A program made the position numbers and the translations under genes. Positions 13,911-61,016 of a DNA stretch of 64,000 nucleotides are shown here, one piece after another. The first letter of the stretch is position 1, and every line of letters begins with the position of its first letter. This DNA is from a virus. The stretch is from positions 6,438 through 70,437 of IMG/VR virus record IMGVR_UViG_3300028283_000002, one strand, 5' to 3'. Under the pieces are notes generated by a model. It did not search any database. It was not told the origin of the DNA and saw only the letters and a list, made by a program, of their open reading frames with translations.

Positions 13911-14465
13911 ATGGTTCAAATATCAAAATATGAAGATTTTAAGAAAATGAATCCTTTGTTTTCCAGAGAACACGATAGAATAGTTAAAAAATATAACATT
14001 GAGTTTATTTCGTTAAAGGGCGTAAAAATCCCTCTTATATGTTTATATGAAATTGTTTCCACTTTGTTTGAAAATAACGATCTAAATCTTAAAATTTCTG
14101 ATGTAATATTACTAACACTTTCAGCTATAGGCCTACTCTCAAAAGAGAATAAAGACCAAGTTAAAATTTTACTAGATTTATGCAAAGATAAAAAGATTTT
14201 AGGACATTTCATATTAGTTAAAAATACGATTAAATCTTTAAAAAATTTATTAAATATCATCTTCAAAAAAGAAGGAGCTGTAATTCAGAATATTGAACAA
14301 GCTTTAAAATATAGATATTCAGTAGATGCTTTAAGTTTAGCCAATTCATATATAAGAATAGATAGGATTAAAATAAAAGATTTTTGTTACTGGTATATAG
14401 TTGATAAACGCAGTAAAGAGTCAAAAGAATTGATTGATTATATTAACATTAACTATTATATTTGA
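13911..14465 (+). CDS. Hypothetical protein with CTS-like N-terminus
   Basis: MVQISKYEDFKK; TTATATATA about 18 nt upstream. Confidence 0.65.
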   Translation: MVQISKYEDFKKMNPLFSREHDRIVKKYNIEFISLKGVKIPLICLYEIVSTLFENNDLNLKISDVILLTLSAIGLLSKENKDQVKILLDLCKDKKILGHFILVKNTIKSLKNLLNIIFKKEGAVIQNIEQALKYRYSVDALSLANSYIRIDRIKIKDFCYWYIVDKRSKESKELIDYININYYI

Positions 14466-15214
14466 ATCCCCAATTCATCAAAATTTGAACTACCAAAACC
14501 ACCATGAGATTTTATCACTTTAAATTTAAAATCATCATCGTCAAATAAATCATCGTAAGCACCATATAAATCAGATATAGTATAATTACCGTATTTAGAT
14601 AATATCTTTTCAACAGCACTTCTTTTTATAATAAAAGTTTTATTTATCATACTATACTCTTTTAAATCAGCTATAAATTCATCCACATATTTATAAAATT
14701 TAGCGGCAAATCCTATACCTTTTAATTTTTCAAATTCATTAATATCATTATAAGTAACACCATCCATTTTTATTTTTTCGCCTTCTATTTTAATAGATAT
14801 ATGATCTTTAAGAGCAAATGGTGTTCCTCTATCATTTAGTACTGGTTTTGGTTCAGCTATTAAGCCTCTAACCTTTTCAAATTCACCTATTACTAATTTA
14901 TCGTTAAAAGAAGAATTAATATATGTCTTCTTATAACCAAAGTATTCCATATACTCTTCAACAATATTAAATAGATCTTTCCCTCTTTTCTTAACAAAAG
15001 ATTTATAATTAAATAATCCAAGATTTGGTTTAGTCTTTTGGTTTTCTTTTCTAGATAATCTATCTTTAATTCTCTGTATTTCAGCCCCTATCTCGTCTTT
15101 TGTCTGAGGTATAGGTTTACCACTAACATTGAAATCTTTATAGGATTTCGTAGCTCTTGATGATGAATAACCCCATAATCTACCAGTGTGTTTTTTAACT
15201 CTGAATGTCTCTGC
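14456..15214 (-). CDS. Hypothetical protein or C-terminal extension of the upstream peptidase
   Basis: The track ORF 14456..14950 frame is open for 88 further codons upstream (to 15214) with no ATG, directly after the peptidase stop. Confidence 0.5.
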   Translation of the reverse strand, partial: AETFRVKKHTGRLWGYSSSRATKSYKDFNVSGKPIPQTKDEIGAEIQRIKDRLSRKENQKTKPNLGLFNYKSFVKKRGKDLFNIVEEYMEYFGYKKTYINSSFNDKLVIGEFEKVRGLIAEPKPVLNDRGTPFALKDHISIKIEGEKIKMDGVTYNDINEFEKLKGIGFAAKFYKYVDEFIADLKEYSMINKTFIIKRSAVEKILSKYGNYTISDLYGAYDDLFDDDDFKFKVIKSHGGFGSSNFDELGIQI

Positions 15215-15219
15215 TTAGT

Positions 15220-15988
15220 TCATTCTTGGCCATAAAGGATGATTCGTGTTTCTTTGGCTGGTACTCTTACAGTTGGTAATCCTTCCCAATTTATCTTAAC
15301 TGTAGCGTTTGCTACTCTTTCAAGATAATTTAAGTTTTGAAATTCGTCTGTATTATGTTCTCTAAAACCACCACAAGATAAATTACTAACTTCTGGAATA
15401 ACAGGCATAAATACTGCTGAATCAGTATAATAACCACCTGGATCAGATTTAAATTCCATTTCATTAGATTTAAATTCAGATACTAAGGCTTCAACAAATT
15501 CTCTGGAGCAACATTGACCAGTATTCATACGTGATATAATTGATCCGTAACCTCTTCTATCAAAAGCTATACATCTATCGAATTGTTTGAACCAATCAGG
15601 TTTTTTAGAAAATATGCCTCTTGAACCTTTACAACCACCACCAGTAACTGGTTCTTCACCAATGAAAAAATAATAACAACCAGGCACATTATGTTCTATC
15701 ATATTTAACATAATAACCACACCAGCCTTATCATCTGAACCAAGAACAGTTTTACCGTCAGTTTTAACGTATTTACCGTCTTCGTAAAATACGTGATTAA
15801 CTTTATCTGCTTTTCTAATAATTATCAAGATGTGAGGTGAACATTGTCTTTGTTTCACCTATTATAATATAATAATTTCCAACTTCGTCTTTTTGAATAT
15901 TTTCTGGTAAGTACGGTTCCAGCATATCTTCTTGTTTATAAGGGGTAAGATATTCCGTAATTTCTATAAATATTTTTCTAACATCCAT
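15220..15988 (-). CDS. M28/M20/M42-like zinc peptidase, frameshifted near 15815
   Basis: ATG 15988 MDVRKIF...TMFTSHLDNY* then +1 frame: LGSDDKAG, FIGEE, AFDRRG, YTD, EHNTDE; AATATATA at 16011-16018 supports this start. Confidence 0.8.
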
Positions 15989-16077
15989 TAAGTGTGGAAT
16001 TATTTTTCTTTATATATTAATTTATAAAAATAGAATTAAATAAACTTAATCTATAATGATCATATATAATAAGTTGT

Positions 16078-16977
16078 ATGATCAATTATTACGAACAATT
16101 CATCAAACCCAAAGAGATAATTAAAGATATTAATTATTTCTACGATCAAATAAGAGATCTTATTTGTAACGAATTATTTGGTCAACAATTATATAATAAA
16201 CGCAAAAAATTAAAAGTGGATAATTACATTGTGAATAATTATCTATCAGGTGTAAATAATACTAGACTGAGATTTAGTAACGATACGATAGTTGTAACAT
16301 TCAAAGTTAGTAAATTTGAAAAAGGTAAAACTACTATCACAAAACCAATATATAGTAAGTATAACATAGAAGGAATAACTATAAATGTAGATATAGTTAT
16401 AACACCACAAGAAGAAAGAAATAAAATCATACATTCTGAAAATTCAGCTCTTAAAGAATTAAGAAAAAATATTCATATAATAAATGAATATTACGTAAAG
16501 AAATTTAGAGACGACGAAGAATCTAAATATAAGGTAATATATGATAGATTAATAAAATTAGATAAAAGTTATTATAACGATTGGAATAGATTGATAAATT
16601 TATTAATAGAATGCACTAACCCCACATTTAACGAAACATTATACAAATTCAGAGAAATAATAGAAGGTACTAATTTTGATGTGATGATCAATGTATATAA
16701 GATGATACACCAGACACAATTTTTTCAAAAATACGCACACCATAAACAAATAAGATTTAAGAAATTCTTAATATCATTAAGAAAAGACTGTCTTGACGAA
16801 AATGAAATATTATATTTAGGAAACAACCTAGCCAAGTGTTTCAGACACACAATAAAAGATTATAATGATTGTATATCATTTATTGAGAATGTTATAAATC
16901 ATTTCAACACAATATGTTATGTAAAGGAGACGAAAATAAATACGTTTGCGTCTAAAGTTTGGGAAAGAGATCTATAA
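16078..16977 (+). CDS. Hypothetical protein with CTS-like N-terminus
   Basis: MINYYEQFIKPKE; ATATATA upstream. Confidence 0.7.
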   Translation: MINYYEQFIKPKEIIKDINYFYDQIRDLICNELFGQQLYNKRKKLKVDNYIVNNYLSGVNNTRLRFSNDTIVVTFKVSKFEKGKTTITKPIYSKYNIEGITINVDIVITPQEERNKIIHSENSALKELRKNIHIINEYYVKKFRDDEESKYKVIYDRLIKLDKSYYNDWNRLINLLIECTNPTFNETLYKFREIIEGTNFDVMINVYKMIHQTQFFQKYAHHKQIRFKKFLISLRKDCLDENEILYLGNNLAKCFRHTIKDYNDCISFIENVINHFNTICYVKETKINTFASKVWERDL

Positions 16978-19851: not shown

Positions 19852-20232
19852 TTATTCACTAATATCTTCTTCACCGTATGGATCTAATTCGTTTACATTT
19901 CTATTAATTGTTCTAGTCCAAGTTATTGTTGATTTTTCAGGAATAAGAAAATCCTCTTCGTGACCGTTACTAACTCTACCAATAAAATGAAATTCATATT
20001 TTCTTTCATCTAGCACAACTTCACTAACTTTTATAGTCGCTCTGGCGTGCCATGTTCTAAGAGGCATTTTAAGATACTCAGAAACATTAACTGTTCTGCC
20101 TATCATTTCTTTTTTTAAATATTCAAATATATTATAGTAGGTTAAAAACTCATCACCCATTTCCCAAATAGATCTGGATATGGTTATATCTTCAACTGAT
20201 TCTTTAACGTAAGATGAAAAATTAATGATCAT
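19852..20232 (-). CDS. CTS-like N-terminus, putative beta-barrel, DPYGEE tail protein
   Basis: MIINFSSYVKES ... NELDPYGEEDISE*. Confidence 0.75.
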   Translation of the reverse strand: MIINFSSYVKESVEDITISRSIWEMGDEFLTYYNIFEYLKKEMIGRTVNVSEYLKMPLRTWHARATIKVSEVVLDERKYEFHFIGRVSNGHEEDFLIPEKSTITWTRTINRNVNELDPYGEEDISE

Positions 20233-20698
20233 CCCAATCCTCCTCTCCGTAAGGATCATGTTTAGATACTATGACTTTTGGTTGAATAAATGTAAATTCA
20301 TACATTTCTTTTGTAGATAAGATAAACAGAGAATCATCTGCTTTCACATTGATAACAATAGAATCATCTATAATTTCTACACCGTGATTTTTACCTACCG
20401 TGACTTTATGACCAGCCTTTGCCCCAAAAACTAAGAAAGGCTCGTTTTGACTGATTAAAATGGTGCTAGTACCAATATGTCTTAATCTAATATATCTTCC
20501 ACTAGATTCACATATTGCCTTGATTCTATTACCACAAGCAATTATATCTTTGTGATCTAAATTGTACAACTCTTTTAAAGACATAACCATAGGTTTATTC
20601 TTTCTTTCATCTTCTGTTTCGTGTGGGGGAAGAGCCAAAGGGGCATTCTTAAAAAGACTAGCATCAGATTGATCGAATTGTTCGTAAGTTTTTATCAT
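20222..20698 (-). CDS. CTS-like N-terminus plus DPYGEE tail protein
   Basis: MIKTYEQFDQS ... HDPYGEEDWDDH*. Confidence 0.8.
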   Translation of the reverse strand: MIKTYEQFDQSDASLFKNAPLALPPHETEDERKNKPMVMSLKELYNLDHKDIIACGNRIKAICESSGRYIRLRHIGTSTILISQNEPFLVFGAKAGHKVTVGKNHGVEIIDDSIVINVKADDSLFILSTKEMYEFTFIQPKVIVSKHDPYGEEDWDDH

Positions 20699-20726
20699 GA
20701 TTCTATATATAAAATTTTAATTTTAA

Positions 20727-21131
20727 TTAATCGTCCCACTCCTCTTCACCGTACGGATCTTCTATCGTATAAATTCTTTTCGCTAACGCAACCTTAACTG
20801 GAAACTCTAAATTAACCATTATATCGGCATTTCTAATATCAAACCATATTTTGTGAATAGTTTTATTAGTGTGCCTATCGTATCTCTCGCTATATTTTAT
20901 TCTCTCGACCGTAACGGTCATTGGTTCAACCATTTTAATTATTTCTCCCGATGTATCACTATACATCCAATGAAATTGTACTATCTTATTTAAAAATAAT
21001 TTATCCAGATATCTAGTAAGAAGTCCGTTATCATTTAGTTCCCACATTTCAATTGTATCAATATAATCATCACATATTTTTAGAAGATCATACGATTTGT
21101 AACTTGAAAAATTTTCAAATATCTTAATCAT
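20727..21131 (-). CDS. CTS-like N-terminus, putative beta-barrel, DPYGEE tail protein
   Basis: MIKIFENFSSY ... EDPYGEEEWDD*. Confidence 0.8.
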   Translation of the reverse strand: MIKIFENFSSYKSYDLLKICDDYIDTIEMWELNDNGLLTRYLDKLFLNKIVQFHWMYSDTSGEIIKMVEPMTVTVERIKYSERYDRHTNKTIHKIWFDIRNADIMVNLEFPVKVALAKRIYTIEDPYGEEEWDD

Positions 21132-21570
21132 CCCACTCCTCCTCTCCATATGGATCTAAGGTCTTATCAACAACTATCTTTTTCCTTTCTTCTTTTAAAT
21201 GTACTATTACTGGTTCTAACGGGTAAACTTCATATGTATCAATATGACCAGACACCATAAAACTTATCGTAACATCAAAATCAAAAAAAGTAGTTACATC
21301 TACACTCAATATAACTCCAGTGATCTTCATCCCCTTCTTTTTTTCAATGTTACCTCGTGGATTTACATATTCCTCATCTTTATAAAATGTGCAAAGTTTA
21401 TTTAACACTTTCCTTTTTAATATCTCTTCAAATTGTTGGCAATCAACGTAATCGTCGTCTGGATTACAACATTTTTGACCTATATCAACAAGACTAACTT
21501 CTTCCGTGAATGGATATTCTAATAGAAGATCATCTATTTTATTTTCAAATATTTCAAATTTAGTTATCAT
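21124..21570 (-). CDS. CTS-like N-terminus, putative beta-barrel, DPYGEE tail protein
   Basis: MITKFEIFENK ... LDPYGEEEWDD*. Confidence 0.8.
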   Translation of the reverse strand: MITKFEIFENKIDDLLLEYPFTEEVSLVDIGQKCCNPDDDYVDCQQFEEILKRKVLNKLCTFYKDEEYVNPRGNIEKKKGMKITGVILSVDVTTFFDFDVTISFMVSGHIDTYEVYPLEPVIVHLKEERKKIVVDKTLDPYGEEEWDD

Positions 21571-22112: not shown

Positions 22113-22144
22113 GTGACTATATATAAAATATTAGTCCCAGTTTT

Positions 22145-25024: not shown

Positions 25025-25038
25025 ACCTTATATTTATT

Positions 25039-28093: not shown

Positions 28094-28414
28094 TTAAGGT
28101 TTTTCTTTAGTAGCACATGTGACTTTATACCAGTCACTAACCATGTTGGGTTTAAAACACATAAAACCGCCTTTTTCTTCTAGATCTTTAACTACACCCA
28201 TTGATCTATTTATATCACATTTGGAATTTTTAAAATTACCCACGTTAACTGATGAATTACCATTATATATAGCTCCAACTGGATTTTTCATATATACTGT
28301 ATCACCTATTTCAAAATCACCTGTATTTGGTTCGAAATCAGCTCTCTCTGGTGGTAATAAAGCACCACTCGTGTACCATCTAACAGCCTCAAATTGTTTG
28401 AATTTAGTCTCCAT
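28094..28414 (-). CDS. CTS-like N-terminus plus SH3-like protein
   Basis: METKFKQFEAVRWY; FEIGDTVYMK. Confidence 0.65.
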   Translation of the reverse strand: METKFKQFEAVRWYTSGALLPPERADFEPNTGDFEIGDTVYMKNPVGAIYNGNSSVNVGNFKNSKCDINRSMGVVKDLEEKGGFMCFKPNMVSDWYKVTCATKEKP

Positions 28415-29756
28415 CTGTTACTATATTCTTTATATCTTCTACGTATTTATAGAGTCTCTTTTGGTAATCTTTCTCTCTATATTCTTTATTCGTCATTAAA
28501 TATACAACGTAACAGAAATATAAAATCTTATCTTTGAATAATTCTTTACCAACTTCGCCACCAACATATCTAAATTCCACGTAACCAGGACTATGATCTA
28601 ATTCTACTAATTTAATACCAAACTCTTTAATATAGAAATCTTTATTGGCTTTGATTAGGTATGGGTTTAAGAAATCTTCCACTTGTTCAATATTATGAAT
28701 ATCTAATTTTTCTATATTTTGTTTAATATAATCTTTGTGTGTGGCTAATCTGTCCTTGTGTCTGAAACCAAGGTTCCATAGTTTTTCTTTATTTCTTGTT
28801 TTATAATCTTGTTTAATTTCACCAGTGAGGTTTCTTCTTATACCGTCAAGTAAACTTTGTGTGAATCTATTATTTGCTCTCCACATTATATCACTAAATA
28901 CAAATGGTGTTCTTTGATCTCTGTTCATATCACCCATTAATACCAACCCCTTCAAAGGATTCCATTTGATTTTTTTATCGTTAACACCAATATTAACGTG
29001 TAAAGCTGTTCTTTTCTTATCCATTTTCCAGAAATCTTGTTGATCAAATTCTTCGTAAAAATCATCGAGTTGTTCGAAACATTCATTCAAACTCTTAATG
29101 TAAGTTTTACTTGAAAATTCAAGAATTCTCTGTTTATCCATATCCCCCTCTAATTCGTATTTGAAAGTATCTCCGTACTTAGCGTAGAATTTTGGCATAT
29201 GTTCTTTGAAATTATCAACGAGATAACCCATATTCTGTCCGTAGACAAACATAGTCAAGTTCTTTAACATCAATGTAGCGATGTAATCATCTACATCAGT
29301 TTCCCAAGCTCTATTAATCTTTCTATCTGTTCTATCCTCGTCATCTGGATCAACTTTGGATAAAAGGAAATCTATAAAAAAATTAACCCAAGTCCAAGTA
29401 ACATATTGTTGATGAAGTTTTTGTAAAGCTTTCTTACCTAGTTTGGCTGTTTCGTTCTCAGCAAACATCTTTTTCTCGTTTTCTTCTAATCTCTTCTTTG
29501 GTAATTTATAACTATCATCAAATCTGTAACCTATCTTACCTCTAGACATATCTAAAAGAATCTGGTCCTTAACAAAACCAAATGTCCTATTAATCTCCTC
29601 TTCTGTTTCTAGATAAGGTTCGTCGTCGAGATCGAAGTCAGCAACTAGTTCGTACTCAATGGATAACGTGAAATGATCAGACATTGATTGAACAAAGTCC
29701 TTATCTTTTCTATTGAATTCGTTTAAGAAATTGAAATAATTGTTAAGTAAGTCCAC
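28404..29756 (-). CDS. Putative amidoligase (COOH-NH2 ligase, Amidoligase_2-like)
   Basis: SIEYEL, YELEGD, LEFSS, TALHVNIG, YVEFRYVGG. Start reassigned to GTG 29756 (VDLLNNYFNFLNE) behind a TTATATATA motif. Confidence 0.7.
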   Translation of the reverse strand: MDLLNNYFNFLNEFNRKDKDFVQSMSDHFTLSIEYELVADFDLDDEPYLETEEEINRTFGFVKDQILLDMSRGKIGYRFDDSYKLPKKRLEENEKKMFAENETAKLGKKALQKLHQQYVTWTWVNFFIDFLLSKVDPDDEDRTDRKINRAWETDVDDYIATLMLKNLTMFVYGQNMGYLVDNFKEHMPKFYAKYGDTFKYELEGDMDKQRILEFSSKTYIKSLNECFEQLDDFYEEFDQQDFWKMDKKRTALHVNIGVNDKKIKWNPLKGLVLMGDMNRDQRTPFVFSDIMWRANNRFTQSLLDGIRRNLTGEIKQDYKTRNKEKLWNLGFRHKDRLATHKDYIKQNIEKLDIHNIEQVEDFLNPYLIKANKDFYIKEFGIKLVELDHSPGYVEFRYVGGEVGKELFKDKILYFCYVVYLMTNKEYREKDYQKRLYKYVEDIKNIVTDGD

Positions 29757-29808
29757 TTTATATAGAAGGTTTTTTCTTCTATATATAAAAAAAGAAAATC
29801 TAATCTTT

Positions 29809-45929: not shown

Positions 45930-46570
45930 TCATCATCCCATTCTTCTTCACCGTATGGATCGAAAGGATTTATTCCTCCAATGATCTTTATTGGTTTTCT
46001 ATGATCTATGTAGAAAGATTTACCGTCTTCTGTATAAATTTTTAACAGATCTCCTTGATGAATAGCATCCAGTGAAATTGTAATTTTTACTGGAACACAT
46101 TTAGCTATTTTTTTAATATTTGGATTAGAAGCATTAAAATTCGATAAAGCATCAGCGTTTTTACTTCCTGTAAAAGTAATTTCTTTTCCAAAATATTTCT
46201 CAAATTCTTTCATAAACGTATCTATGAAAAAGAATCTACCTGTTGGTGATATATCAAAATATACACTATGTCTTCTATCACTTGATCTAACTAAATAAGG
46301 TGTACAGTATTGACTTTCACTGGCTCTGTGATATATTACGTCTTCAACATTCATTATAGCGTTATGAGAAGTACTCATATTACATTTAAAAGTTTCAGAC
46401 ATGAAGTTATTTGTGTGGAAAGACACTATTCTACCAACAAGATGGTCTCTGAAAATTTCAGCCATTTTTTCACCAGCTTCAGTATCAATTCTTCTAATAT
46501 CATCAGAGAAACTAATAACTTTATCAGTTTTCATAGCCTCATTTAAAAAATTATTGAATTTAGTTCTCAT
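45926..46570 (-). CDS. CTS-like N-terminus, two putative beta-barrels, DPYGEE tail
   Basis: MRTKFNNFLNEAMK ... FDPYGEEEWDDD*. Confidence 0.75.
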   Translation of the reverse strand: MRTKFNNFLNEAMKTDKVISFSDDIRRIDTEAGEKMAEIFRDHLVGRIVSFHTNNFMSETFKCNMSTSHNAIMNVEDVIYHRASESQYCTPYLVRSSDRRHSVYFDISPTGRFFFIDTFMKEFEKYFGKEITFTGSKNADALSNFNASNPNIKKIAKCVPVKITISLDAIHQGDLLKIYTEDGKSFYIDHRKPIKIIGGINPFDPYGEEEWDDD

Positions 46571-46914
46571 TTTTCCCAAACTTCTTCACCGTAAGGATCT
46601 AACTCAGAGTGAGGATTAATTTTTCTTTTCTTTTTAATTTCAATAGCCTCTTTGTACGTCTTTGGACATTCACCTCCAACCATATCAAACTCTTTTTCTG
46701 TTAATACTATCGCTTTATAAGTATATCCTAAAGCAAATATAGCGTCTTTGGCTGATAGATTATGGTTTTGACGTTTTAATTTACCGTCAACATACATACC
46801 AATCCAATCACCGTCTGTACTTTCTACAAATCTTATAACTGGATCTGGTCTTTCATAAGAAGATTCATCACTTAGATTTACACCTATTGCTTCATTAAAT
46901 TTTTTAATTTTCAT
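46567..46914 (-). CDS. CTS-like N-terminus plus DPYGEE tail protein
   Basis: MKIKKFNEAI ... ELDPYGEEVWEK*. Confidence 0.8.
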   Translation of the reverse strand: MKIKKFNEAIGVNLSDESSYERPDPVIRFVESTDGDWIGMYVDGKLKRQNHNLSAKDAIFALGYTYKAIVLTEKEFDMVGGECPKTYKEAIEIKKKRKINPHSELDPYGEEVWEK

Positions 46915-46960
46915 ACTCTTATATATTATTTTTTAAATTGAAGTTTTAATATATAGTTTT

Positions 46961-48055
46961 ATGATTAAAGATTATTTAAAGTTTAACGAATCCACAAAAC
47001 CTATATGGTATTACGATAGAATCATAGCTCACGGAGGGCTTAGATTTTGGGGCGACGACGGACAGTATAACGTAGACATAGAAGGTCAAACTGGTAGGGT
47101 TGCTTCTATTAAAGGGGGTGGGTATAAGATGGTTGGAATAGTCTTTGATAATTATTTTTTTAACCAACTCACAGACTTAGATAAGATTTTAAAATTTAAA
47201 AGAGGTTTATGGGTAGGTATGGATCAACTTGAAAAAGTTGTAATTGAAAAACCAAAAATAGAAAGAAGACCACTATCTTTTTCAGATAAAGCTAAAAAGG
47301 TCATTGAATATTGTGAATACGTAGATTGCCCATTATTCCTAGATATAGATTATATAGATATTACTGAAAAGAACGACACTGTATCTTATATAACAAGAGA
47401 TAGATTAGAAAGATTGAGTTACGACGATGATCAATGGGATAATAATTTAAGACAAGAAATGAAGGTTAGTAAACTAATCATGATGATAACACCCTATACT
47501 AATCAAGTTAGTTTAGAAAAGAAAGTAAATTTATTTAAATCTGCACATAACTCTATTATTACAAATAAAGCAACTTTTAAAATAGTAAAAGGTGACGAAA
47601 TAGGTAAATGGTATAACGAAGACTCTTATCAAGAAGGAACAGGACAATTAAACAAATCTTGTATGAGAGATAAAATGGACAGACTATCAGTTTATTATAC
47701 CAATCCAGATAAAATAAGTATGTTAATATTATTAAACGAAGACAATAAACTAGTTGGTAGAGCACTTGTTTGGAAAGTAGATGAGCCAGAAGGTGTTACC
47801 TATATGGATAGAACATATACAGTATATTCAGAAGACGTGCATAGATTTGAAGACTACGCTAGACAACACGGTTGGAAATATTTTGAAATGTATAGATATA
47901 CAGGAATGAAAGTATATTTTGATTACGATTTGGGGTCAGACGAAGAAAACCCCTACATGGACACATTTACAAATTATTACTCTGATATTAAATGTTTAAC
48001 AAATAAATATATTGATGGGCATCAAGATGAGTTAATAGACTTTACATACGTATAA
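46961..48055 (+). CDS. SCM/RALLW/YMDR family paralog 2
   Basis: MIKDYLKFNES; GQLNKSCM, NPDKI, GRALVW, YMDRTY, NPYMDTF. Confidence 0.8.
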   Translation: MIKDYLKFNESTKPIWYYDRIIAHGGLRFWGDDGQYNVDIEGQTGRVASIKGGGYKMVGIVFDNYFFNQLTDLDKILKFKRGLWVGMDQLEKVVIEKPKIERRPLSFSDKAKKVIEYCEYVDCPLFLDIDYIDITEKNDTVSYITRDRLERLSYDDDQWDNNLRQEMKVSKLIMMITPYTNQVSLEKKVNLFKSAHNSIITNKATFKIVKGDEIGKWYNEDSYQEGTGQLNKSCMRDKMDRLSVYYTNPDKISMLILLNEDNKLVGRALVWKVDEPEGVTYMDRTYTVYSEDVHRFEDYARQHGWKYFEMYRYTGMKVYFDYDLGSDEENPYMDTFTNYYSDIKCLTNKYIDGHQDELIDFTYV

Positions 48056-48079: not shown

Positions 48080-49501
48080 ATGGAAAATATGTTAAAATAT
48101 CAAGAATTTATAAATGAGTCTAAGATAGACTCCACTTACGCTGATAACGAGAATAAGCATAGATTATTATTTTCTGAAACTATAAGTAAAGATTTTTCTG
48201 AAAGGAGAAACGAATTTCCTCTATTTTATCAATTCTATTTAGATTCTGACGTATTTTACGGTCTTAGATTTATTACAGATAATGATGATATAGATAGAAT
48301 TGTAGATGATTACGAAAATATTAGATTCACTCTACTTCTATCTAGATCTTATAGAGATACAGAAGACGAACTCCCTGGTGATCATAAACACCTTTTAACA
48401 TACGAAGGCGGTAGATTTAATCTTTCACAAATTATAGAAAATAAAGAAAATTATTATTTTTATAAAATAGTTGAAGGGCCTAGAAATAATAATATACCGA
48501 ATTGGGATGAAGCTGTTGATTTTGAACAAATTAACGAAAAGAGATGGATATTTGTTATAAGAAAAGAATCGACTTGTTCTTTGGTTAAAACTGAATCAAG
48601 AGAGAGTAGTGGCACTTGGGCTGAAAGACATTTATCTAAATTGTATGGTTGGAAAGAAGATCCAAAAAAAATAAAATTAAATTTCACTTATAACGGTGCT
48701 GCTATTACAAGGGCTAATGGTTTAATAAATACAGTTTTTAATTCGACTGATGCTGATATATTTGAAATAGAAGATAATCCAGAAACTTGTTTCAAATACG
48801 ATCTAGTTATGCCGGATGGTAAAAAAATAGAAGTGAAAAAATATAATATAAAAGAAATTTGGAAAAATAACGCACCTGTTCCTATCTTACTAGCTCAACA
48901 AATTAGAATGGCTAGTAGAGAAACACTTGTTAAAATTGTGAGAATGTACAGAGATTTATTAGAAGAAGACACACCCGAATATGACGCAGTAAATGATTTA
49001 GTAGAAATGCAACCAAGAGAACTTCAAGATTATTTCGATGTTAGAAAACAACCAGGCGGAAGATTAAATCCAATATGTACAACTATAAAAGCCTATTATA
49101 ATTCAAGAATAAGAAGACTTGTGGAAAAATTTAACGCGATGAACCAAAATCTTTGGATGCAAGGCATTTACGGTATTTATTTTTGCGATGAAGATAGAAC
49201 TACTAGAAAAAGAGATTTCCTTGTTAAAGTTGGTGAAAACGGTGTTAGGAATTTCAATTATTTCTGGAGAGAATTTAATAGTTGGTTGGGGTTCAACGAA
49301 TTAAAATTATTTATGACTGTAAAAGGTGAAGCGTGGGAATACATCTTATCTGAATGGGACACTTTTGTTAGGACTTTTCAAGTAGAGAATCACGAAGAAT
49401 ATCTTGCTGATATTGAAAATGGTGAAATAGATATAGATGATAAGACGTATAAATATAACGATATGGATCACTATTGGGTAGAAGAGCCAAAAGAAGATTA
49501 A
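48080..49501 (+). CDS. CTS-bearing protein with PD-(D/E)XK-like nuclease motif
   Basis: MLKYQEFINESK; WAERHL...FKYDLVMPDGKKIEVKK. Confidence 0.55.
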   Translation: MENMLKYQEFINESKIDSTYADNENKHRLLFSETISKDFSERRNEFPLFYQFYLDSDVFYGLRFITDNDDIDRIVDDYENIRFTLLLSRSYRDTEDELPGDHKHLLTYEGGRFNLSQIIENKENYYFYKIVEGPRNNNIPNWDEAVDFEQINEKRWIFVIRKESTCSLVKTESRESSGTWAERHLSKLYGWKEDPKKIKLNFTYNGAAITRANGLINTVFNSTDADIFEIEDNPETCFKYDLVMPDGKKIEVKKYNIKEIWKNNAPVPILLAQQIRMASRETLVKIVRMYRDLLEEDTPEYDAVNDLVEMQPRELQDYFDVRKQPGGRLNPICTTIKAYYNSRIRRLVEKFNAMNQNLWMQGIYGIYFCDEDRTTRKRDFLVKVGENGVRNFNYFWREFNSWLGFNELKLFMTVKGEAWEYILSEWDTFVRTFQVENHEEYLADIENGEIDIDDKTYKYNDMDHYWVEEPKED

Positions 49502-50665
49502 TTACAAATACATATCATTACTTACCTGGTTAACATTACTTGTATTTCTTACTTGAAAATTAGTATTTGCTGATATAAAACCAGAACCAACTGGGCTTCT
49601 TATTGGTTTATAAGGAGATATAATATCAGAATTCTTTATAGTGGCATCAGGAGCACCTCTAGCCACACTTCCCTCAACGTCAAAACTAACTAGATAAGTA
49701 TTATTAGGATAAACTTTTAATATTTTAACAGGAGCTGGTTCACCTGTTAGATTGTGGGTGATCATAACATAATCGTCTTTAATTGGATCAAATCTTTTTT
49801 CGTAGAGTTGATAACTCATAACGTGATTAAACCCTTCATTTCTTGCGTTTTCCATAGCTCTTATCCTTCCTTTTATTGTCTCTATTTCGTTCGAGAGAGT
49901 TTCGTAATCTTTTGTACCTTTTTTGGTTCTTGCCAGTGTAGCCTCGTAACCTTCGAGTGTTTGTCTTAGTAGAGCAAGTCTTCTTAATCTATTTTGAATT
50001 GGATCTTTTTCTGCTTGTTGATTGGGTCTCGCTGCTCTCCTAGCTCTTGGTGGTGCTTGATAATTGTAATCTTTATCTTTTGAAGAAGACTGTTTTTTCT
50101 CTGGTCTTGTTTTAGCTTTACCACTTTGGATGAATGGATAAACTGTATCTAAAATAAATATTTTAAAATCTGCGTAATTTAATCCAGATACCTTGTAATC
50201 GTAATCTTTTTCACCATATTTTATATTAACATGAAAAACAGGCATACGGATAGTATTATCGAAAGTGACCACAAAATCTAAATTCACGTGACTTATATGT
50301 AAATTATCACATTCTATTTTTATATAATTACGATTAGGAATAGATAGATAACAGTCTCTATAATTCCTATATATGAATTGAACAACAGCGTTCCAAGTAT
50401 CTTGAAATTCTTGTTTTTGTCTTTCTTCTTCTTGTTTTTGTCTTTCTTCTCTTTCTTCGGTCTCTCTTCTCTGTCTTTCAGCTCTTTCTTCTCTTTCTCT
50501 TTTTTCTTTTTCTGCTTTTTCTTTAGCCATTTTTTCTTTAGTTCTCAAAGAAGGTTCACCCTTGATATCTTTACCAGTGGCAACTTCGTAATCTAAAAAA
50601 TTTCTCATCCATTTTGGACTTCTATAAATCGCTTCATTCGCCTTCTGGTTTCTCATTCTTACCAC
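49502..50665 (-). CDS. Multi-module protein with coiled coils and C-terminal Tudor/SH3-like domain
   Basis: E/R/K-rich coil; internal NEGFNHVMSYQLYEK followed by VKILKVYPNNTYLVSF. Confidence 0.65.
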   Translation of the reverse strand: MVRMRNQKANEAIYRSPKWMRNFLDYEVATGKDIKGEPSLRTKEKMAKEKAEKEKREREERAERQRRETEEREERQKQEEERQKQEFQDTWNAVVQFIYRNYRDCYLSIPNRNYIKIECDNLHISHVNLDFVVTFDNTIRMPVFHVNIKYGEKDYDYKVSGLNYADFKIFILDTVYPFIQSGKAKTRPEKKQSSSKDKDYNYQAPPRARRAARPNQQAEKDPIQNRLRRLALLRQTLEGYEATLARTKKGTKDYETLSNEIETIKGRIRAMENARNEGFNHVMSYQLYEKRFDPIKDDYVMITHNLTGEPAPVKILKVYPNNTYLVSFDVEGSVARGAPDATIKNSDIISPYKPIRSPVGSGFISANTNFQVRNTSNVNQVSNDMYL

Positions 50666-50999
50666 TAATTATTTTTATGCCATATTTATCTGCCCAATCA
50701 TATATCTTATCTAAATATGGTAATATATTCTTCTCATTCTTTTCCTTTACCAACTTAACCAAATCATTCCAACACTCTTTACCTATACCAACTAAATTAT
50801 CTTTCTTACCAAGTAAAGCGTCTTTATATTTTTTAATGAACTCATTTACGTTCTTATCCTGCGAATATTTATTCCAAATATCAGTAACATCATACTCTAG
50901 TTCCCAATTAACTTCTTGAACGTCAAAATCATCCATAGAGTCTTCAATGGTAAGAGTAGATTGTTCGTTAACAAAGTCTTTGTAACTAGTTTTTATCAT
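50634..50999 (-). CDS. Hypothetical protein with CTS-like N-terminus
   Basis: MIKTSYKDFVNEQ. Confidence 0.7.
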   Translation of the reverse strand: MIKTSYKDFVNEQSTLTIEDSMDDFDVQEVNWELEYDVTDIWNKYSQDKNVNEFIKKYKDALLGKKDNLVGIGKECWNDLVKLVKEKNEKNILPYLDKIYDWADKYGIKIISGKNEKPEGE

Positions 51000-51015: not shown

Positions 51016-52188
51016 TTAGTCATGGTCTACGTAATTATAATATTGAAATGATTTCGCTTTATAATCTATATTCAAAGCGTCTGGTGTTAATAATTGGTTT
51101 GTATCTCTATTAAAATATTTGAAAGTGTCCATAAAAGGATTGTTTTGAGGAACACCGTAATCTCTTTTCACAGTAACTCTCTTCACACCGTTACGATCTC
51201 TTACCCAAGGACCTATCATATTATTCTTTTTACAATATTCAACCATCTTTAGTTCACTTGTATTATCTACTGAATAAATCCTATCCATGTAAACAGTACC
51301 GTCATCTAATTTCCAAATAAGTACTCTAGCCATCAACATCCCCTTATCATCTGTTAATATACCCATTGCGCATTTATCTGGATTTTCACAATAAATATCA
51401 AATCTTTTTTGCGATCTAGATGATCTCATACAAGAACCACCGATAGATCCTTGATGACCAGTTTCGCCTTTTCCGTAGGTAGTGCCAAGGTACCATTTTC
51501 TTATGTCCTCACCAACAACTACTTTCAAATTATCTTCTACGTTCTTTATTGTTTTTTCCCACAATAATTTAAATTGGGGAATAAGTGCGTCTATTTCTTT
51601 ATCAGTTAGATCTGGATCTAATTTTCTGAAAAATTTACCAATTTTCATAGTTTGTCTAAAACTGGCTTTATATGGATCTACTGCTTTATTTTTAATTTCT
51701 GATTTGAATTTGGATATAGGTACAAAAGAAATTAAATCACTTTTTTCAAAATCAACATTAACAAAACAAATATCGATATATTTTTTCTTTATTTTAAATT
51801 TTAGTTCAGCCAGAATATCTTTAATAAATTTACTACAATCAAATTCGACTAGATTTCCTCTAAGAAAATCTTTAGCTTCTTCTGGTGTAATTTTTATAAG
51901 ACTTCTGCCTTGACTTTTTGTGATAGTAAATGTATCTGTAAGTCTATATTTATGATAAGGCATCCATTGATAATCCCTTAATTTATTTTCTGGATCATCT
52001 GGTTTTTGTACTTTGATAGTATAAAAAGTTATTTTATCAACATCTGTAATAGTTTCAACTATAGCTAGTTTACCGTTAAGTTGTTGAACGCCACGAAAAT
52101 TCTTATCACAGATAACGTAGTCACCCTCTTTTATCTCTTCCTTTTTAACTGCTTCATTCAAAACTAAAAACTCATCATATTTGATCAT
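51016..52188 (-). CDS. SCM/RALLW/YMDR family paralog 3
   Basis: MIKYDEFLVLNEAVKK; GSIGGSCM, NPDKC, ARVLIW, YMDRIY, NPFMDTF, YVDHD*. Confidence 0.8.
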   Translation of the reverse strand: MIKYDEFLVLNEAVKKEEIKEGDYVICDKNFRGVQQLNGKLAIVETITDVDKITFYTIKVQKPDDPENKLRDYQWMPYHKYRLTDTFTITKSQGRSLIKITPEEAKDFLRGNLVEFDCSKFIKDILAELKFKIKKKYIDICFVNVDFEKSDLISFVPISKFKSEIKNKAVDPYKASFRQTMKIGKFFRKLDPDLTDKEIDALIPQFKLLWEKTIKNVEDNLKVVVGEDIRKWYLGTTYGKGETGHQGSIGGSCMRSSRSQKRFDIYCENPDKCAMGILTDDKGMLMARVLIWKLDDGTVYMDRIYSVDNTSELKMVEYCKKNNMIGPWVRDRNGVKRVTVKRDYGVPQNNPFMDTFKYFNRDTNQLLTPDALNIDYKAKSFQYYNYVDHD

Positions 52189-52973: not shown

Positions 52974-53843
52974 TTATTCCCATACATATAATCCATTTCC
53001 CCAATTCCTGGAATTTAATCCACACTTTCTACAAATCCAACCTCCACCATGTTCTCTTTCCACCTTTGATTTTTTGTTACATTTAGGACAAGTATATATT
53101 TGAGTATCATCGTTATAAAAATCACTCAAAGGTAAAACCCCAGCGTCTAAAGGATTATTATAGTCTTCTAAAGGTCCATCAAAACCAAACACCTCATGGT
53201 CTGTGTCGTCAAATTCTTCTCCAAAAGAACAAACGTGCTTATCTCCTAAAATTTTCCCAATAAATTTATTTTGACCGTACCTGTTATTATTAGCACGCCA
53301 CTCAGCTAACAATTCATCACCTCTAGCCATTTGTTGGTGATATAGTTCTATCTCTCTATCCCATCTACCTGGTTGCCTTGCTAACTCTCTATCATCCCAA
53401 ATCTCTTCCCCGTATGGATCTAGTTCTCCCCTTGGATCACCAGCTTTATATTTAGTATTTTCATCAACCTCCCACAACTCTTCACCGTAAGGATCTAGAT
53501 ATGGGTCAAAAATTTGTTTAATAGAGGACATCACTTCTATTTTATCGTTAAATGAAATGGAAGTGAAATTTTGATCTTGTGGGTTCTTTGTAGAAAATAA
53601 TTTAAAATAATCTCTATTTGGCCAAACAACTACTCTCATTGGTACGATGTTTGTATTCTTAACTCTTCCTCTAAAATCTTTTTGTACTATATTTAATCTT
53701 CTACCTAATAACATTTTTTTAAATTGAGGTATAGCTCTCTTTCTATCGTTGGCGCATTGTAACAACACTTCATTGAAAGAAAAAACGTCCCCAATTTTAA
53801 CTGTAACAGCTTCATTTATATATGTAGAAAAATTAGTTATCAT
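52974..53843 (-). CDS. CTS-like N-terminus, two internal DPYGEExW motifs, C-terminal Zn ribbon
   Basis: MITNFSTYINEAV; LDPYGEELW; LDPYGEEIW; CPKC...CRKC. Confidence 0.75.
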   Translation of the reverse strand: MITNFSTYINEAVTVKIGDVFSFNEVLLQCANDRKRAIPQFKKMLLGRRLNIVQKDFRGRVKNTNIVPMRVVVWPNRDYFKLFSTKNPQDQNFTSISFNDKIEVMSSIKQIFDPYLDPYGEELWEVDENTKYKAGDPRGELDPYGEEIWDDRELARQPGRWDREIELYHQQMARGDELLAEWRANNNRYGQNKFIGKILGDKHVCSFGEEFDDTDHEVFGFDGPLEDYNNPLDAGVLPLSDFYNDDTQIYTCPKCNKKSKVEREHGGGWICRKCGLNSRNWGNGLYVWE

Positions 53844-54824: not shown

Positions 54825-55136
54825 TTATTCATCTTCCCATACTTCTTCACCATATGGATCTAATTCTCCTCTTGGGTTTCCACCGATATCTTCGAACGCG
54901 GATCTAAGTTCATTTAGAATAGTAAACAAAGCGTTCGAAAAATCACCAATAGTAACGTTTTCAATTATTTTTTTACTATCGTGTTTAGAAAGCTCTTTTT
55001 TAGTTTCATCCCTCAATGATCTCAATATGTTGATTATATCAGTTTTAGAAATCCAAATATCGCCATCGATCTCTTTCCATTTACTAGATCTCAACCCTTT
55101 ATGTTCATCAGATTCGTTAAATCTTTTAATTCTCAT
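54825..55136 (-). CDS. CTS-like N-terminus plus DPYGEE tail protein
   Basis: MRIKRFNES ... PRGELDPYGEEVWEDE*. Confidence 0.8.
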   Translation of the reverse strand: MRIKRFNESDEHKGLRSSKWKEIDGDIWISKTDIINILRSLRDETKKELSKHDSKKIIENVTIGDFSNALFTILNELRSAFEDIGGNPRGELDPYGEEVWEDE

Positions 55137-55171: not shown

Positions 55172-55210
55172 AAATAAAAATCCCAGACTTTCGATCTGGG
55201 ATTTTTATTT
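55172..55210. terminator. Bidirectional rho-independent terminator after rtcB
   Basis: AAATAAAAATCCCAGA-CTTTCGA-TCTGGGATTTTTATTT perfect 16-bp stem. Confidence 0.85.
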
Positions 55211-56954: not shown

Positions 56955-58101
56955 AAAACCTAATGGATATTGGTCCTTTGAAAGATGTCAAAAAGAGGCC
57001 TTAAAATATAATACCAGAAAAGAATTTTTTCTAAAAAACTCAGGGTGTTATGATAAATCTATTAAACAGGGTTGGATGGAACAAATATGTGGACACATGG
57101 TCATGGGTAGTGTTTTTTGGACTAAAGAAAAATGTCAAGAAGAATCCTTGAAATACAAAACTAGAAATGAATTTAGATTAAATAGTTTGGCTTACGCTTC
57201 ATCATTAAGAAACAAATGGTTAGATGAAATTTGTTCACACATGTCAGAAATTAGGAAACCGACTGGGTATTGGACAAAAGAAAGATGTAAAGAAGTAGCA
57301 GAAAAATGTGATTCAAAAATAGAATTCAATAGAAAATATAGAGGAGCATATTTATCTTCATGTAAAAATAATTGGTTAAATGAGATTTGTTCAAATATGA
57401 TAGGACCAAACAGGAAAAATAAAAAATGGTTGATATATTCCTTTATAATTTTAGATAAATATGTATATATTGGATTAACAAGTGATGAAAAATCGAGAAA
57501 TCACTTTCATTTAACTAATAAAAAAAGTGCAGTTTATCAATTCACAACAGAAAATAAAATTGAAAAAGAAAAAATTAAATATAAGATCGAAATAGATAAT
57601 ATAGTAGATGAAAATCTATCAGCTTCATTAGAAAAATTTTATTTAAATTCATATTTGAAAAAAGGATATATTAAGTTGAATAAGAATGAAACTGGCGGTT
57701 TGGGCGGAATGATTTTGAAATGGACGAAAGAAAGATGTGAAGATGCAGCCAAATCTTGTAAAACTAGATCGGAATTTAGTAATAAATTCGAAGGCGCGTA
57801 TAGTTCATCTAGAAAAAATAAATGGTTAGAAGAAATATGTTTTCATATGAAACCGATTAATAGAAAACCAAATAATTACTGGACAAAAGAACTATGTTTT
57901 GATATAGCTAAGAATTACAAAACTAAATATGAATTTGAAAAAAAATCTAAAGGCGCCTATAAATATGCTTTAAGAAATAATTTATTGCGTTCCGTGATAA
58001 GTAACACCTGGTTTATTTGGTGTTCTATTACTCAAGTAATACCTTTTATTCTTCTCATCTACACAAGAGTACCTCATTGTGTCCATGAATGGATTTCCTG
58101 A
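56941..58101 (+). mobile_element. GIY-YIG homing endonuclease with tandem helical repeats
   Basis: LIYSF...VYIGLT...R...E...N core flanked by about five YWTxExC...YxxRxEF...WL repeats. Confidence 0.85.
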
Positions 58102-59109
58102 TGATGGTTTGTGTTTACCACCCCAGTCTTTAGGTAATGTTACTTCCAGGAGACCAGCGTCTCCTATATTGTAACTTTTCATACCATTTTTCTTGGCGTA
58201 ATCCATTAAAATAGTTTTTTCTTCTGGTCCTATTGCATATACTCTATCCATGTAAACTTGCCCGTCATCTAATCTCCATACAACTGCTCTAGCCATTAAT
58301 TTATCGTCTTCGTTTGTATATGTACAAAGAGCAATTTTATCTGGATTTTCACAATATAAATTAAAATAAACAGAACAACTTGAGCTACTCATACAAGAAT
58401 TCCAAAGTTCTGACGAACCATAAGAACTCTTAGCGTAATGTTCGTTACTATACCAATATCTAATATCTTCACCTGTAACTACATCAAGATTTTTACCTTC
58501 ACCGAGTACGATGACTTTAAAAGCCGCCCTATAAAGAGTAACTAATTCCTCAACTTGTTTATCAGATAATGTTGGAATAAGTTTTTTAAGAGTTCTACCA
58601 ACCTTCATAGCTTGTCTACCTTTTTTAAGGTCTGGGTCGCCTTCAAATTTCTTTGCTGGAAGATATGTTATAACTTCCATATTATCTTTATCAATATCAA
58701 AGAATGATACGTCAATATATTCTTCTGTTGGTTCGAATTTCATTCTTCTAAAAATTCTTAATAATTCAGTAGATGCTTTATAAGGTACAACTTCTCTATT
58801 TTGAATTTTCTTTGCTAAATCTTCTGGAATTATTTCATAAATATTATCTATTGGTACGTACAAACAATGTTTTGGTTTGCCTATGTCTTTGTGACCAGAG
58901 TGTAATCTAGGAGAAAAAGAAACAAGAAATTCGATAAGAATATAACCATATTCCTTCATTTCGATAACGTTACCAAGTTGGGAACTAACATCAATACCGT
59001 CCCATTGACCCATGGTTCTCACCATTTTACCAATAGCTAGGTCTGCTCTTGTTGGTTTCTTAGGTGTTTTTTTCACAGCTTCATTTATAAAATTGTTATA
59101 AGTTATCAT
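57982..59109 (-). CDS. SCM/RALLW/YMDR family paralog 4
   Basis: MITYNNFINEAVKK; SELWNSCM, NPDKI, ARAVVW, YMDRVY, NPFMDTM. Confidence 0.8.
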   Translation of the reverse strand: MITYNNFINEAVKKTPKKPTRADLAIGKMVRTMGQWDGIDVSSQLGNVIEMKEYGYILIEFLVSFSPRLHSGHKDIGKPKHCLYVPIDNIYEIIPEDLAKKIQNREVVPYKASTELLRIFRRMKFEPTEEYIDVSFFDIDKDNMEVITYLPAKKFEGDPDLKKGRQAMKVGRTLKKLIPTLSDKQVEELVTLYRAAFKVIVLGEGKNLDVVTGEDIRYWYSNEHYAKSSYGSSELWNSCMSSSSCSVYFNLYCENPDKIALCTYTNEDDKLMARAVVWRLDDGQVYMDRVYAIGPEEKTILMDYAKKNGMKSYNIGDAGLLEVTLPKDWGGKHKPSSGNPFMDTMRYSCVDEKNKRYYLSNRTPNKPGVTYHGTQ

Positions 59110-59126
59110 TTCTTTATCAGATTCTT

Positions 59127-59849
59127 TTAATTTTCCCAATTCTCTTCACCGTAAGGGTCTAGGGTCTTTAATCTCATATCCATTATTTTAATTGGTTGTG
59201 TATGAATTAATAATTGTGAAGTTTTATCGTCACATTCAACTATGATAAAATCTTGTGTTGTACCATTATGTACACCAATTCTAATAACATGTTTAGTGTA
59301 TTTTATTTGATCTCCGCCTTTTATCGGTTTACCCTGATAGGTTAAGAGTTGATCAAGAAAATGTTCTTCAAAGAAATCTAAAAATTTACCAACATCAAAT
59401 AACTTCGATTTTCCTTCGTCTTGCCAATTATATCTTACCTTTCTTTCCTTATCTTCAAATATAACAGGGTAATAATCACCCTTATTGTTACCAAGTATTA
59501 CGTCATTTACTTCTAAAATCTTTTGTCTTCCATTTTCATCCACCACACCAATTATCTTACCATTTATGGATTTTTTCAATTCTTCTATCATTAACTCAGC
59601 AGATTCTTTCTTTGCGCTCTCAACTGCGACCTTTTTTTCTTTTTCTAGGTCACTCATTTTTTTCTTAAGTTCAGCCAGAGCCTTCTCTATATCTCTAGTG
59701 TTCTTATTAGTGGTATTGGTCAAAATATTTTGAAAATCATTATAAAATGACTTAGTATCGTATATTTTCTTAGCTCCTGGTGGATCTGGTTTTATCATAT
59801 CTTCATTTAAGACTTCAAGATTTAAATAAGAATTATATTTCTTTAACAT
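59127..59849 (-). CDS. CTS-like N-terminus, two putative beta-barrels, DPYGEE tail
   Basis: MLKKYNSYLNLEVLNE ... LDPYGEENWEN*. Confidence 0.75.
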   Translation of the reverse strand: MLKKYNSYLNLEVLNEDMIKPDPPGAKKIYDTKSFYNDFQNILTNTTNKNTRDIEKALAELKKKMSDLEKEKKVAVESAKKESAELMIEELKKSINGKIIGVVDENGRQKILEVNDVILGNNKGDYYPVIFEDKERKVRYNWQDEGKSKLFDVGKFLDFFEEHFLDQLLTYQGKPIKGGDQIKYTKHVIRIGVHNGTTQDFIIVECDDKTSQLLIHTQPIKIMDMRLKTLDPYGEENWEN

Positions 59850-59945
59850 GATACTATATATAATTTTTTAAATCTTATTTTTTGAATTACAAAGTTAGAA
59901 AAATTTTTCAAAATATCTATTTTATTTTTCTTATATATTAATTTT

Positions 59946-61016
59946 TTAATCGTGATCTACATATTCCCAATACTCTCCAGCTTTGAAATTTCTAAATCTA
60001 TTAGTTAAATAATCTCCCGTTGTGATAAAAAATTTAAACGTGTCCATGAAAGGATTATCATGTGGTGTTCCGTAATCCATACCCATATTGACTCTTAGAA
60101 GTATTCCCTTCTTATCTACTTCAGCCTTAGTTAAAAACCCTTTCTTCTTGGCGTAGTCTAAAAATAATTTCTCAATAAAATCTTCAGTACAATAAATTCT
60201 ATCCATATAGATAACACCCTTTGGTTCGTCTAATTTCCATAATAAAGCCCTACCTAATAATCTACTCATTGGATTTAATATGTATAACAATTTCACTTTC
60301 TCTGGGTTGTTAGTGTAGATGGGTAATCTTCTTTGTGAACGAACGTGTTTCATACAAGATTGGTGTAAAGAACCACCTCCTTCAGCGTAAAACATTTCGA
60401 GGTACCATTTGGCCATATCAATGCCTTTTGCTATTTTAAATCTACCGAAATCATCTTTATTAAGATTAAATGAAAATTTATAATCGTTAATATAATCTTC
60501 TATTATCATATCAGTATCGTTAATAATTTTCTTTAGAAATCTTCCCACTCTAATATTTTGACGCATAGTTGAAGTCCAAGGATCTTCACCTTTATCTAAT
60601 CTTTTAAAATTATCAGCACTTAAACAAGACACTGTATCGTTTCTTTGTGTTACGTCAATATAAGATACGTCACAGAAAAATATTTTTTCGTAATCTAAAA
60701 GAAATTTTAAACTATAAGCAGAGATGTCTTTGAATTTTCTAGAATACATTAAAGGTATATTATCATCACTCTTATTATTAATGAATAAATCTGTCCATTT
60801 TGGATCTCTTATAAACCAACCGTTATTATTATATATCTCGCCTCCTAAATCGTGTAATTTATCGTTAAATCTATTTAAAAATTGTACACCACTCTTTTTT
60901 AATACTCCTATATGGTTATGTGTTTTCAAGTCATCGATGTCCCCGTTAACAACTACAAGGTCGCCAACTTTGGGTACAATAACAGATTCTTCAAATAGTT
61001 TATAGGATAACATCAT
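59946..61016 (-). CDS. SCM/RALLW/YMDR family paralog 5
   Basis: MMLSYKLFEES; GSLHQSCM, NPEKV, GRALLW, YMDRIY, NPFMDTF, YVDHD*. Confidence 0.8.
   Translation of the reverse strand: MMLSYKLFEESVIVPKVGDLVVVNGDIDDLKTHNHIGVLKKSGVQFLNRFNDKLHDLGGEIYNNNGWFIRDPKWTDLFINNKSDDNIPLMYSRKFKDISAYSLKFLLDYEKIFFCDVSYIDVTQRNDTVSCLSADNFKRLDKGEDPWTSTMRQNIRVGRFLKKIINDTDMIIEDYINDYKFSFNLNKDDFGRFKIAKGIDMAKWYLEMFYAEGGGSLHQSCMKHVRSQRRLPIYTNNPEKVKLLYILNPMSRLLGRALLWKLDEPKGVIYMDRIYCTEDFIEKLFLDYAKKKGFLTKAEVDKKGILLRVNMGMDYGTPHDNPFMDTFKFFITTGDYLTNRFRNFKAGEYWEYVDHD

Follow-up and report, generated by a model that had tools for sequence, protein, structure and literature searches.

A T4-like N-terminal tag shared by many proteins of a giant phage lineage, a candidate capsid targeting sequence and propeptide

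A 64,000-nucleotide stretch of viral DNA from IMG/VR record IMGVR_UViG_3300028283_000002 (hereafter the window) encodes many proteins that begin with similar residues, of consensus M-[IL]-[KT]-x-[FY]-x-x-[FY]-[ILV]-[NK]-E, and we refer to this shared N-terminus as the tag. The window corresponds to bases 6438-70437 of a 152,665-bp viral contig (CheckV completeness 21%), has a G+C content of 28-32% and reads well in the standard genetic code. A sequence-only reading of the window had described about 20 proteins with such N-termini. The pattern is real, but the number is smaller: 17 genes with an ATG start carry it, together with one that has a probable GTG start (29756), and four of those listed lack the Glu site. 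Apart from outliers at 13.9, 16.1 and 29.8 kb, the tagged genes form two clusters (19.8-21.6 kb and 45.9-61.0 kb). The contig is 89.6% identical over 5.2 kb to LR756501.1, a 735,411-bp unannotated 'uncultured phage' record, which we took whole (1006 called proteins) as the complete reference for the lineage. The Mahaphage clade contains a 735-kb genome, the largest phage genome reported, and its predicted hosts are Bacteroidetes (Al-Shayeb et al., PMC7162821). T4 sequences for comparison were taken from record AF158101, and our scan for the core heptad of the tag covered 100 kb of T4.

Eight of the window tags contain the full heptad [FY]xx[FY][ILV]xE, or the same heptad with a two-residue insertion (starts 20232, 29756, 46570, 48089, 50999, 52188, 53843 and 59109). 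A 470-aa protein with no Pfam or PHROG family (48089..49501, +) begins MLKYQEFINES; its tag, earlier assigned to an open reading frame (ORF) from 48080, is indeed present but begins at the second ATG, 48089, with 48080 as the alternative. Proteins of 375 aa (57982..59109, −; MITYNNFINEA) and 390 aa (51016..52188, −; MIKYDEFLVLNEA) are members of a family of four paralogues, and the heptad also opens a 289-aa protein in which DPYGEE occurs twice internally and a zinc ribbon lies at the C-terminus (52974..53843, −; MITNFSTYINEA) and a 121-aa protein (50634..50999, −; MIKTSYKDFVNEQ). Two further genes specify both the tag and a second motif, DPYGEE, near the C-terminus: a 214-aa protein (MRTKFNNFLNEA ... 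DPYGEEEWDDD; 45926..46570, −), whose start overlaps the stop of the upstream gene, and a 126-aa protein (MIINFSSYVKES ... DPYGEEDISE; 19852..20232, −), whose start is preceded by GGAGAGGAGG within the DPYGEE codons of the upstream gene. The remaining gene of this class is a probable member if GTG 29756 is its start (28404..29756, −; VDLLNNYFNFLNEF); ATATATAG lies 22 nt upstream, and the longest ORF runs from 29888. No Pfam family confirmed the label 'amidoligase' previously attached to this ORF (28404-29888).

Three tags are short variants ending F-N-E-[AS]. They are found on a 364-aa member of the four-paralogue family (46961..48055, +; MIKDYLKFNES), which has ATATATAG 4 nt 5' of its ATG, and on two two-tag proteins, of 115 aa (46567..46914, −; MKIKKFNEA ... 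DPYGEEVWEK) and 103 aa (54825..55136, −; MRIKRFNES ... DPYGEEVWEDE). Another three end in F-E or have a shifted Glu: the fourth paralogue (355 aa; 59946..61013, −; MLSYKLFEES, F-E class), a 148-aa two-tag protein (21124..21570, −; MITKFEIFEN, F-E class ... DPYGEEEWDD) and a 240-aa two-tag protein (59127..59849, −; MLKKYNSYLNLEVLNED ... DPYGEENWEN), which is a remote paralogue of the 214-aa protein and also has ATATATAG 4 nt 5' of its ATG. The last four have the aromatic pair alone. Two of these are two-tag genes, encoding a 158-aa protein without a Glu site (20222..20698, −; MIKTYEQF ... DPYGEEDWDDH; ATATATAG 4 nt 5' of the ATG) and a 134-aa protein (20727..21131, −; MIKIFENF ... DPYGEEEWDD). 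The others are a weak member in which the expected Glu is absent (299 aa; 16078..16977, +; MINYYEQFIKPKE) and a doubtful one (184 aa; 13911..14465, +; MVQISKYEDFKKMN).

The shared N-terminus is confirmed as a real feature of the window. A strict regular expression for the tag matched 27 of 316 Met positions near ORF starts in the contig, compared with 4 of 612 internal Met positions, and 80 of 1361 compared with 22 of 3224 in LR756501, an enrichment near ORF starts of about tenfold. Phenylalanine and tyrosine together have a frequency of 0.21 at protein position 5 and 0.19 at position 8, against a background of 0.11. The tripeptide [ILVF]-[NK]-E ends 37 of 78 regular-expression matches in LR756501 and approximately 11 of 18 in the window. 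Once the tags and DPYGEE motifs had been removed, BLAST related only four of 17 window proteins to one another (those starting at 46961, 52188, 59109 and 61013), indicating a portable N-terminal module as opposed to a trait of one family. The tag is kept in homologues of two families down to ~30% identity, and homologues of the 214-aa two-tag protein at 30-60% identity retain both tags.

Searches of Pfam and PHROGs with 20 tagged window proteins returned weak matches only (a zinc ribbon, an HNH-like match and one family of uncharacterised function), and none of the 37 LR756501 proteins with the full motif had a strong Pfam or PHROG match. The rate at internal Met positions predicts about nine chance matches to the regular expression, and CoaE, DeoC, radical SAM, GNAT and HD domains were found only on LR756501 matches without the Glu site. 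As clear housekeeping enzymes are thus confined to matches that lack this site, the motif is not equally common on clearly non-virion genes in LR756501, an outcome that would have counted against a role in the virion. With regard to structure, the AlphaFold model of the 390-aa protein had a mean predicted local distance difference test (pLDDT) score of 92, with residues 1-3 and 6-13 below 50; the tag forms a detached, low-confidence helix ahead of a confident two-domain core. Foldseek against the PDB and VIA-align gave weak matches for this core, to a Tudor/KOW-like barrel (Z 6-7) and a GNAT-like fold (Z ~6). In the model of the 214-aa two-tag protein both tags lie outside the folded core, DPYGEE forming a disordered tail.

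The tags match the capsid targeting sequence of T4, as had been proposed, and end in a hydrophobic-x-Glu tripeptide. T4 internal proteins IPII and IPIII start MKTYQEFIAEA and IPI starts MKTFKEF (AF158101). The window sequence MLKYQEFINES (48089) is identical to the T4 tag at seven of ten positions. The heptad [FY]xx[FY][ILV]xE fits both the T4 tag and the window consensus, and it also fits FGSFLTE/AE in T4 gp23, which we take to be the maturation cleavage site after Glu65. In T4 it is experimentally established that the tag directs proteins into the scaffolding core and is cut off by gp21 (PMC3012670, PMC5694885). The two systems share a sequence of ~10-13 residues at the extreme N-terminus of unrelated proteins, with the order aromatic-x-x-aromatic-aliphatic-x-Glu, and a type of genome with a T4-like portal, protease and capsid module (PMC3012670, PMC5694885). 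They differ in that three internal proteins are tagged in T4, compared with ~80 per 735 kb and ~18 in the window here; in that the P2 residue is mostly Asn or Lys here and Ala in T4; in the co-occurrence here of the second motif, DPYGEExW; in a scaffold that here shares one polypeptide with the protease and consists of 13 tag-like repeats; and in that the present lineage is known from its sequence alone. What is new relative to T4 is the scale (~80 tagged proteins per genome), the mimicry of a scaffold repeat and the coupled second tag. We found no published description of such tags in the literature: a text search for DPYGEE gave no relevant paper, and a review of jumbo phages does not mention them (PMC7824862).

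A second comparison is with the phiKZ-like giants (SPN3US, phiKZ and 201phi2-1), which are likewise giant phages in which a gp21-related protease processes head-internal proteins after Glu (PMC5694885). Their propeptides have been proposed to target cargo to the prohead and are cut at [S/A/G]-x-E by the T4-related protease; they are mostly 80-160 residues long, do not share a sequence and occur on about eight proteins, whereas here a short common tag is found on many (PMC5694885). A long propeptide of the phiKZ type was ruled out for the tagged proteins, whose Glu falls at residues 10-13 and which have an aliphatic or aromatic residue at P3.

LR756501 encodes a T4-type head module, comprising a Portal_T4 protein (236 bits), an 807-aa ORF (73913-76336) and a Gp23 capsid protein (83 bits), with the 807-aa ORF located between the portal and Gp23 genes. 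The first 170 residues of its product are 26% identical to T4 gp21 over 149 aa with the catalytic His and Ser aligned, and His77 and Ser132/133 are invariant in 49 homologues. A gp21-like protease, for which the sequence-only reading had advised checking, is thus encoded in the relative, as a Peptidase_S77-type enzyme with both catalytic residues. We refer to the 807-aa protein as the protease-scaffold, as its residues 319-473 comprise 13 in-register 14-residue repeats of the type I-x-Y-S-E-Y-I-A-E-N-L-D-x-x (8-15 repeats per homologue). The tag looks like one copy of this repeat: the tag heptad occurs 112 times in the LR756501 proteome, 57 times within the first 21 residues of proteins and 14 times in the protease-scaffold. 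Every repeat ends I-A-E, a T4-type cut site. From this likeness and these endings we infer that the tag helix would join the repeats in core assembly and would then be cut likewise. A complex prediction for the scaffold repeats (residues 300-490) and a tagged N-terminus (residues 1-45) scored 0.00, which counts neither way on binding.

The presumed cut site links the tag to the protease-scaffold in a second manner. The tetrapeptide [ILVFM]NE[AS], which ends many tags, occurs at 65 sites in the called LR756501 proteins, and in 17 of them the Glu is at residues 10-13, against an expectation of 0.29 per position. The sole protein enriched for it internally is the protease-scaffold, with six sites (Poisson P = 1.7e-7), compared with 0.24 sites in composition-preserving shuffles of the same protein. 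Two of these sites bracket the protease domain, with Glu20 nearly invariant and N172-E173-S174 invariant across homologues, as would be expected of autoprocessing sites. Among 119 homologues of the capsid protein, 117-119 have [MLVI]-N-E at residues 41-43, a pattern compatible with a propeptide border, without amounting to proof of one.

Some of the genes for tagged proteins also share an upstream octamer. In LR756501, 31 genes have ATATATAG upstream at exactly 4 nt from the ATG, and most of them begin with the tag or a close variant; in the window, sites at this distance lie at 20703-20710, 22117-22124, 46949-46956 and 59854-59861. Octamer copies number 18 in the window, compared with 7.3 expected from shuffles (2.5-fold). 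The form ATATATA[GC] is located ~20 nt 5' of the starts of the portal, large terminase, tail-fibre, head-tail adaptor and Gp23-like genes. The shared octamer is a hint of late co-expression, perhaps from leaderless transcripts: if it acts as a T4-type late -10 element at 4 nt from the ATG, transcripts would start at or beside the AUG.

We consider it probable, with some reserve, that this N-terminal tag serves as a T4-type capsid targeting sequence and prohead-protease propeptide, used at very large scale. Of the readings we weighed it has the best support, as the tag is tied to the protease-scaffold by several independent features of sequence. The mechanism we propose is that an amphipathic helix of ~11 residues, M-I-K-x-[FY]-x-x-[FY]-[ILV]-[NK]-E, in effect one 14-residue repeat of the protease-fused scaffold, would co-assemble with the scaffold core as the shell forms and carry the protein fused to it into the prohead. 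The gp21-like protease would then cut after the Glu of hydrophobic-x-Glu (mostly I/L-N-E), freeing the cargo and chopping up the scaffold; the cargo would remain in the head and probably exit with the DNA. Scaffold binding, cleavage, presence in the virion and injection of the tagged proteins are all steps that we infer. On this basis the phage probably packs many proteins into its capsid.

Several observations weigh against a capsid targeting sequence. With a median pI of 5.2 the tagged proteins are acidic, whereas the internal proteins of T4 are basic, and eighty different cargo proteins would, to our knowledge, be far above the number in any phage head. About half of the regular-expression matches lack [ILV]-[NK]-E, and the residue following the tag Glu is variable (A, S, G, Q, E, N or L). 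The head module is that of a relative that is ~90% identical, and no protease or scaffold gene was found in the window's own 152-kb contig. The hydrophobic-N-E of the capsid protein lies in a block that is invariant anyway, and a MAFFT alignment did not superpose it on the T4 gp23 cleavage site. Finally, the octamer also precedes the gene for bS21, so that it is at most a candidate late promoter.

Some of these same features would be expected if the tag were instead an amphipathic docking helix for a hub other than the prohead, such as a phage-made compartment, a chaperone or an oligomerisation platform, its likeness to the scaffold repeat and the T4 sequence reflecting only a common type of helix. 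The tag is short and helical, the cargo is acidic and numerous, the second motif co-occurs with the tag, and a second Gp23-like shell protein is encoded in the window. We regard such a hub as unlikely, since it leaves unexplained both the 7/10 identity to an experimentally defined T4 tag and the finding that the tripeptide at the end of the tag brackets the protease domain and is enriched internally only in the protease-scaffold.

Cleavage might, on the other hand, occur with no packaging at all. The tag could be a pro-sequence that holds toxic or regulatory proteins inactive, or that singles them out for removal at a set time, and that is cut in the cytoplasm by the head protease or another Glu-specific protease; the Glu-site signature common to the tags and the protease's own borders would fit this, as would a cargo of orphan proteins that are possibly effectors. 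T4-type prohead proteases work within the assembled prohead, however, as established for T4 (PMC5694885), an 11-residue detached helix is an implausible inhibitor of many unrelated folds, and a tag identical with the scaffold repeat argues for co-assembly, making a pro-sequence of this kind improbable. Least probable of all is that the conservation is a by-product at the level of nucleic acid, either a recombining promoter-plus-start cassette or a leaderless-mRNA or translation-initiation signal in the first codons: ATATATAG does stand at a fixed 4 nt before 31 mostly tagged genes and the first codons are A/T-rich, but such a promoter is absent from many tagged genes, which are translationally coupled within arrays, exact matches between tag DNAs are short, and the residues swap within classes in a tag that is kept in homologues of 30% identity.

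The comparison of the tag DNAs bears directly on this last point. The longest exact match between pairs was 6 nt in the median and never exceeded 13 nt, the third codon position was less alike than the first two, synonymous codons varied, and F/Y and I/L/V were interchanged. Taken together, these features indicate selection on the peptide. An origin of the tags as a DNA repeat or by gene conversion was rejected, with DPYGEE codons varied and no more than 13 nt shared between tag DNAs.

The capsid targeting reading leaves the second motif, DPYGEExW, to be considered. A DPYGEE tail had been noted on eight or nine tagged genes, and we find DPYGEE on nine of those in the window; the contig has 36 copies of DPYGEExW and LR756501 has 109. 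Some 40% of them are located 8-12 residues before the stop, and the remainder occur right after the N-terminal tag or between domains. The DPYGEE codons vary at every position, and DPYGEE is therefore a protein motif. Among the LR756501 proteins, 34 have both motifs, 51 the N-terminal tag only, 57 DPYGEE only and 864 neither (odds ratio 10, P = 1e-16). Of the two-tag grammar put forward earlier, then, the co-occurrence of N- and C-terminal tags is strong, but the proposal that the C-terminal tag serves a post-injection partner found no support. DPYGEExW is also present on a methyltransferase, a CCA-adding or poly(A) polymerase-like enzyme and a deaminase.

Two proteins encoded outside the window bear on the nature of its partner. 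One is a 178-aa paralogue of the prohead-protease domain (LR756501:11317-11850, −), which is 45% identical to it, has lost the catalytic residues (His to Tyr and Ser to Pro) and ends in a DPYGEENWSE tail. The other is a ~207-aa protein (contig 148447-149076, +; LR756501:619760-620383) with a DPYGEE tail and three scaffold-type 14-residue repeats (YAEYLAEQ, YQEYIAEQ and YSEYVAEH). That DPYGEE occurs on both of these proteins makes a partner in head assembly at least as likely as a post-injection one. C-terminal encapsidation signals include the tail of the HK97 maturation protease and the cargo-loading peptides of encapsulins. These offer a possible analogy for DPYGEExW only, in that unrelated proteins each bear a short, disordered peptide at a terminus and one copy of DPYGEExW is on a protease-fold paralogue; there is no sequence similarity, and DPYGEExW, unlike these signals, also occurs at N-termini and between domains.

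The arrangement of the two motifs varies further in small-gene arrays. Upstream of the window, at contig 3326-4926 (+), and in LR756501 at 474320-476336, small genes specify an N-terminal tag of the type MIKKFKLFE, a spacer of 5-8 residues, DPYGEExW and then a domain, a layout indicating that the two tags can adjoin at the N-terminus. Where a DPYGEE tail overlaps the start of the next gene (window 20232-20260 and 21131-21150, and many sites in LR756501), the G-E-E codons read GGAGAGGAGG, a strong Shine-Dalgarno-like run, and the stop/start overlap is TGGGATGATTAA, which can be read as W-D-D-stop or, in the other frame, as M-I-K. Such GAG-rich codons were found in 5 of 41 C-terminal copies and in none of 68 internal copies. 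In a genome with otherwise few Shine-Dalgarno sequences, this suggests that the GAG-rich DPYGEE codons also serve to couple translation, a form of dual coding.

Were the tag to act as its T4 counterpart does, the capsids of the largest known phages would hold dozens of different proteins, mostly without known fold or function, and the tag would be a simple sequence rule for listing the virion cargo of uncultured phages, with anti-defence or host-takeover proteins perhaps among that cargo. The equivalence of the tag to a single scaffold repeat suggests a way in which T4-type tags are recognised, and the tag could also be a portable means of loading foreign proteins into the capsids of Bacteroidota phages. 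A bolder version, which we hold to be possible though doubtful, is that Mahaphage-type phages send about a tenth of their proteome to the capsid, with ~80 N-tagged proteins and ~90 bearing DPYGEExW as a second capsid-docking signal and not a post-injection one, so that the virion delivers a large, fast-evolving and ready-made set of proteins with its DNA.

The second Gp23-like gene mentioned above encodes a diverged 482-aa paralogue of the capsid protein (35864..37312, −; 23 bits), far from the main head module of the relative. Its orthologue in LR756501 has ATATATAC 19 nt 5' of the start, and the protein may be a gp24-like vertex protein or form a separate shell. Amid the second cluster of tagged genes is an untagged gene for an RtcB RNA ligase (189 bits; 55209-56699, −). 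Lastly, LR756501 encodes a 1691-aa protein (21458-26533, −) with seven FVKY[LI]IEI repeats spaced ~60 residues apart, in which the heptad is the same as that of the tag.

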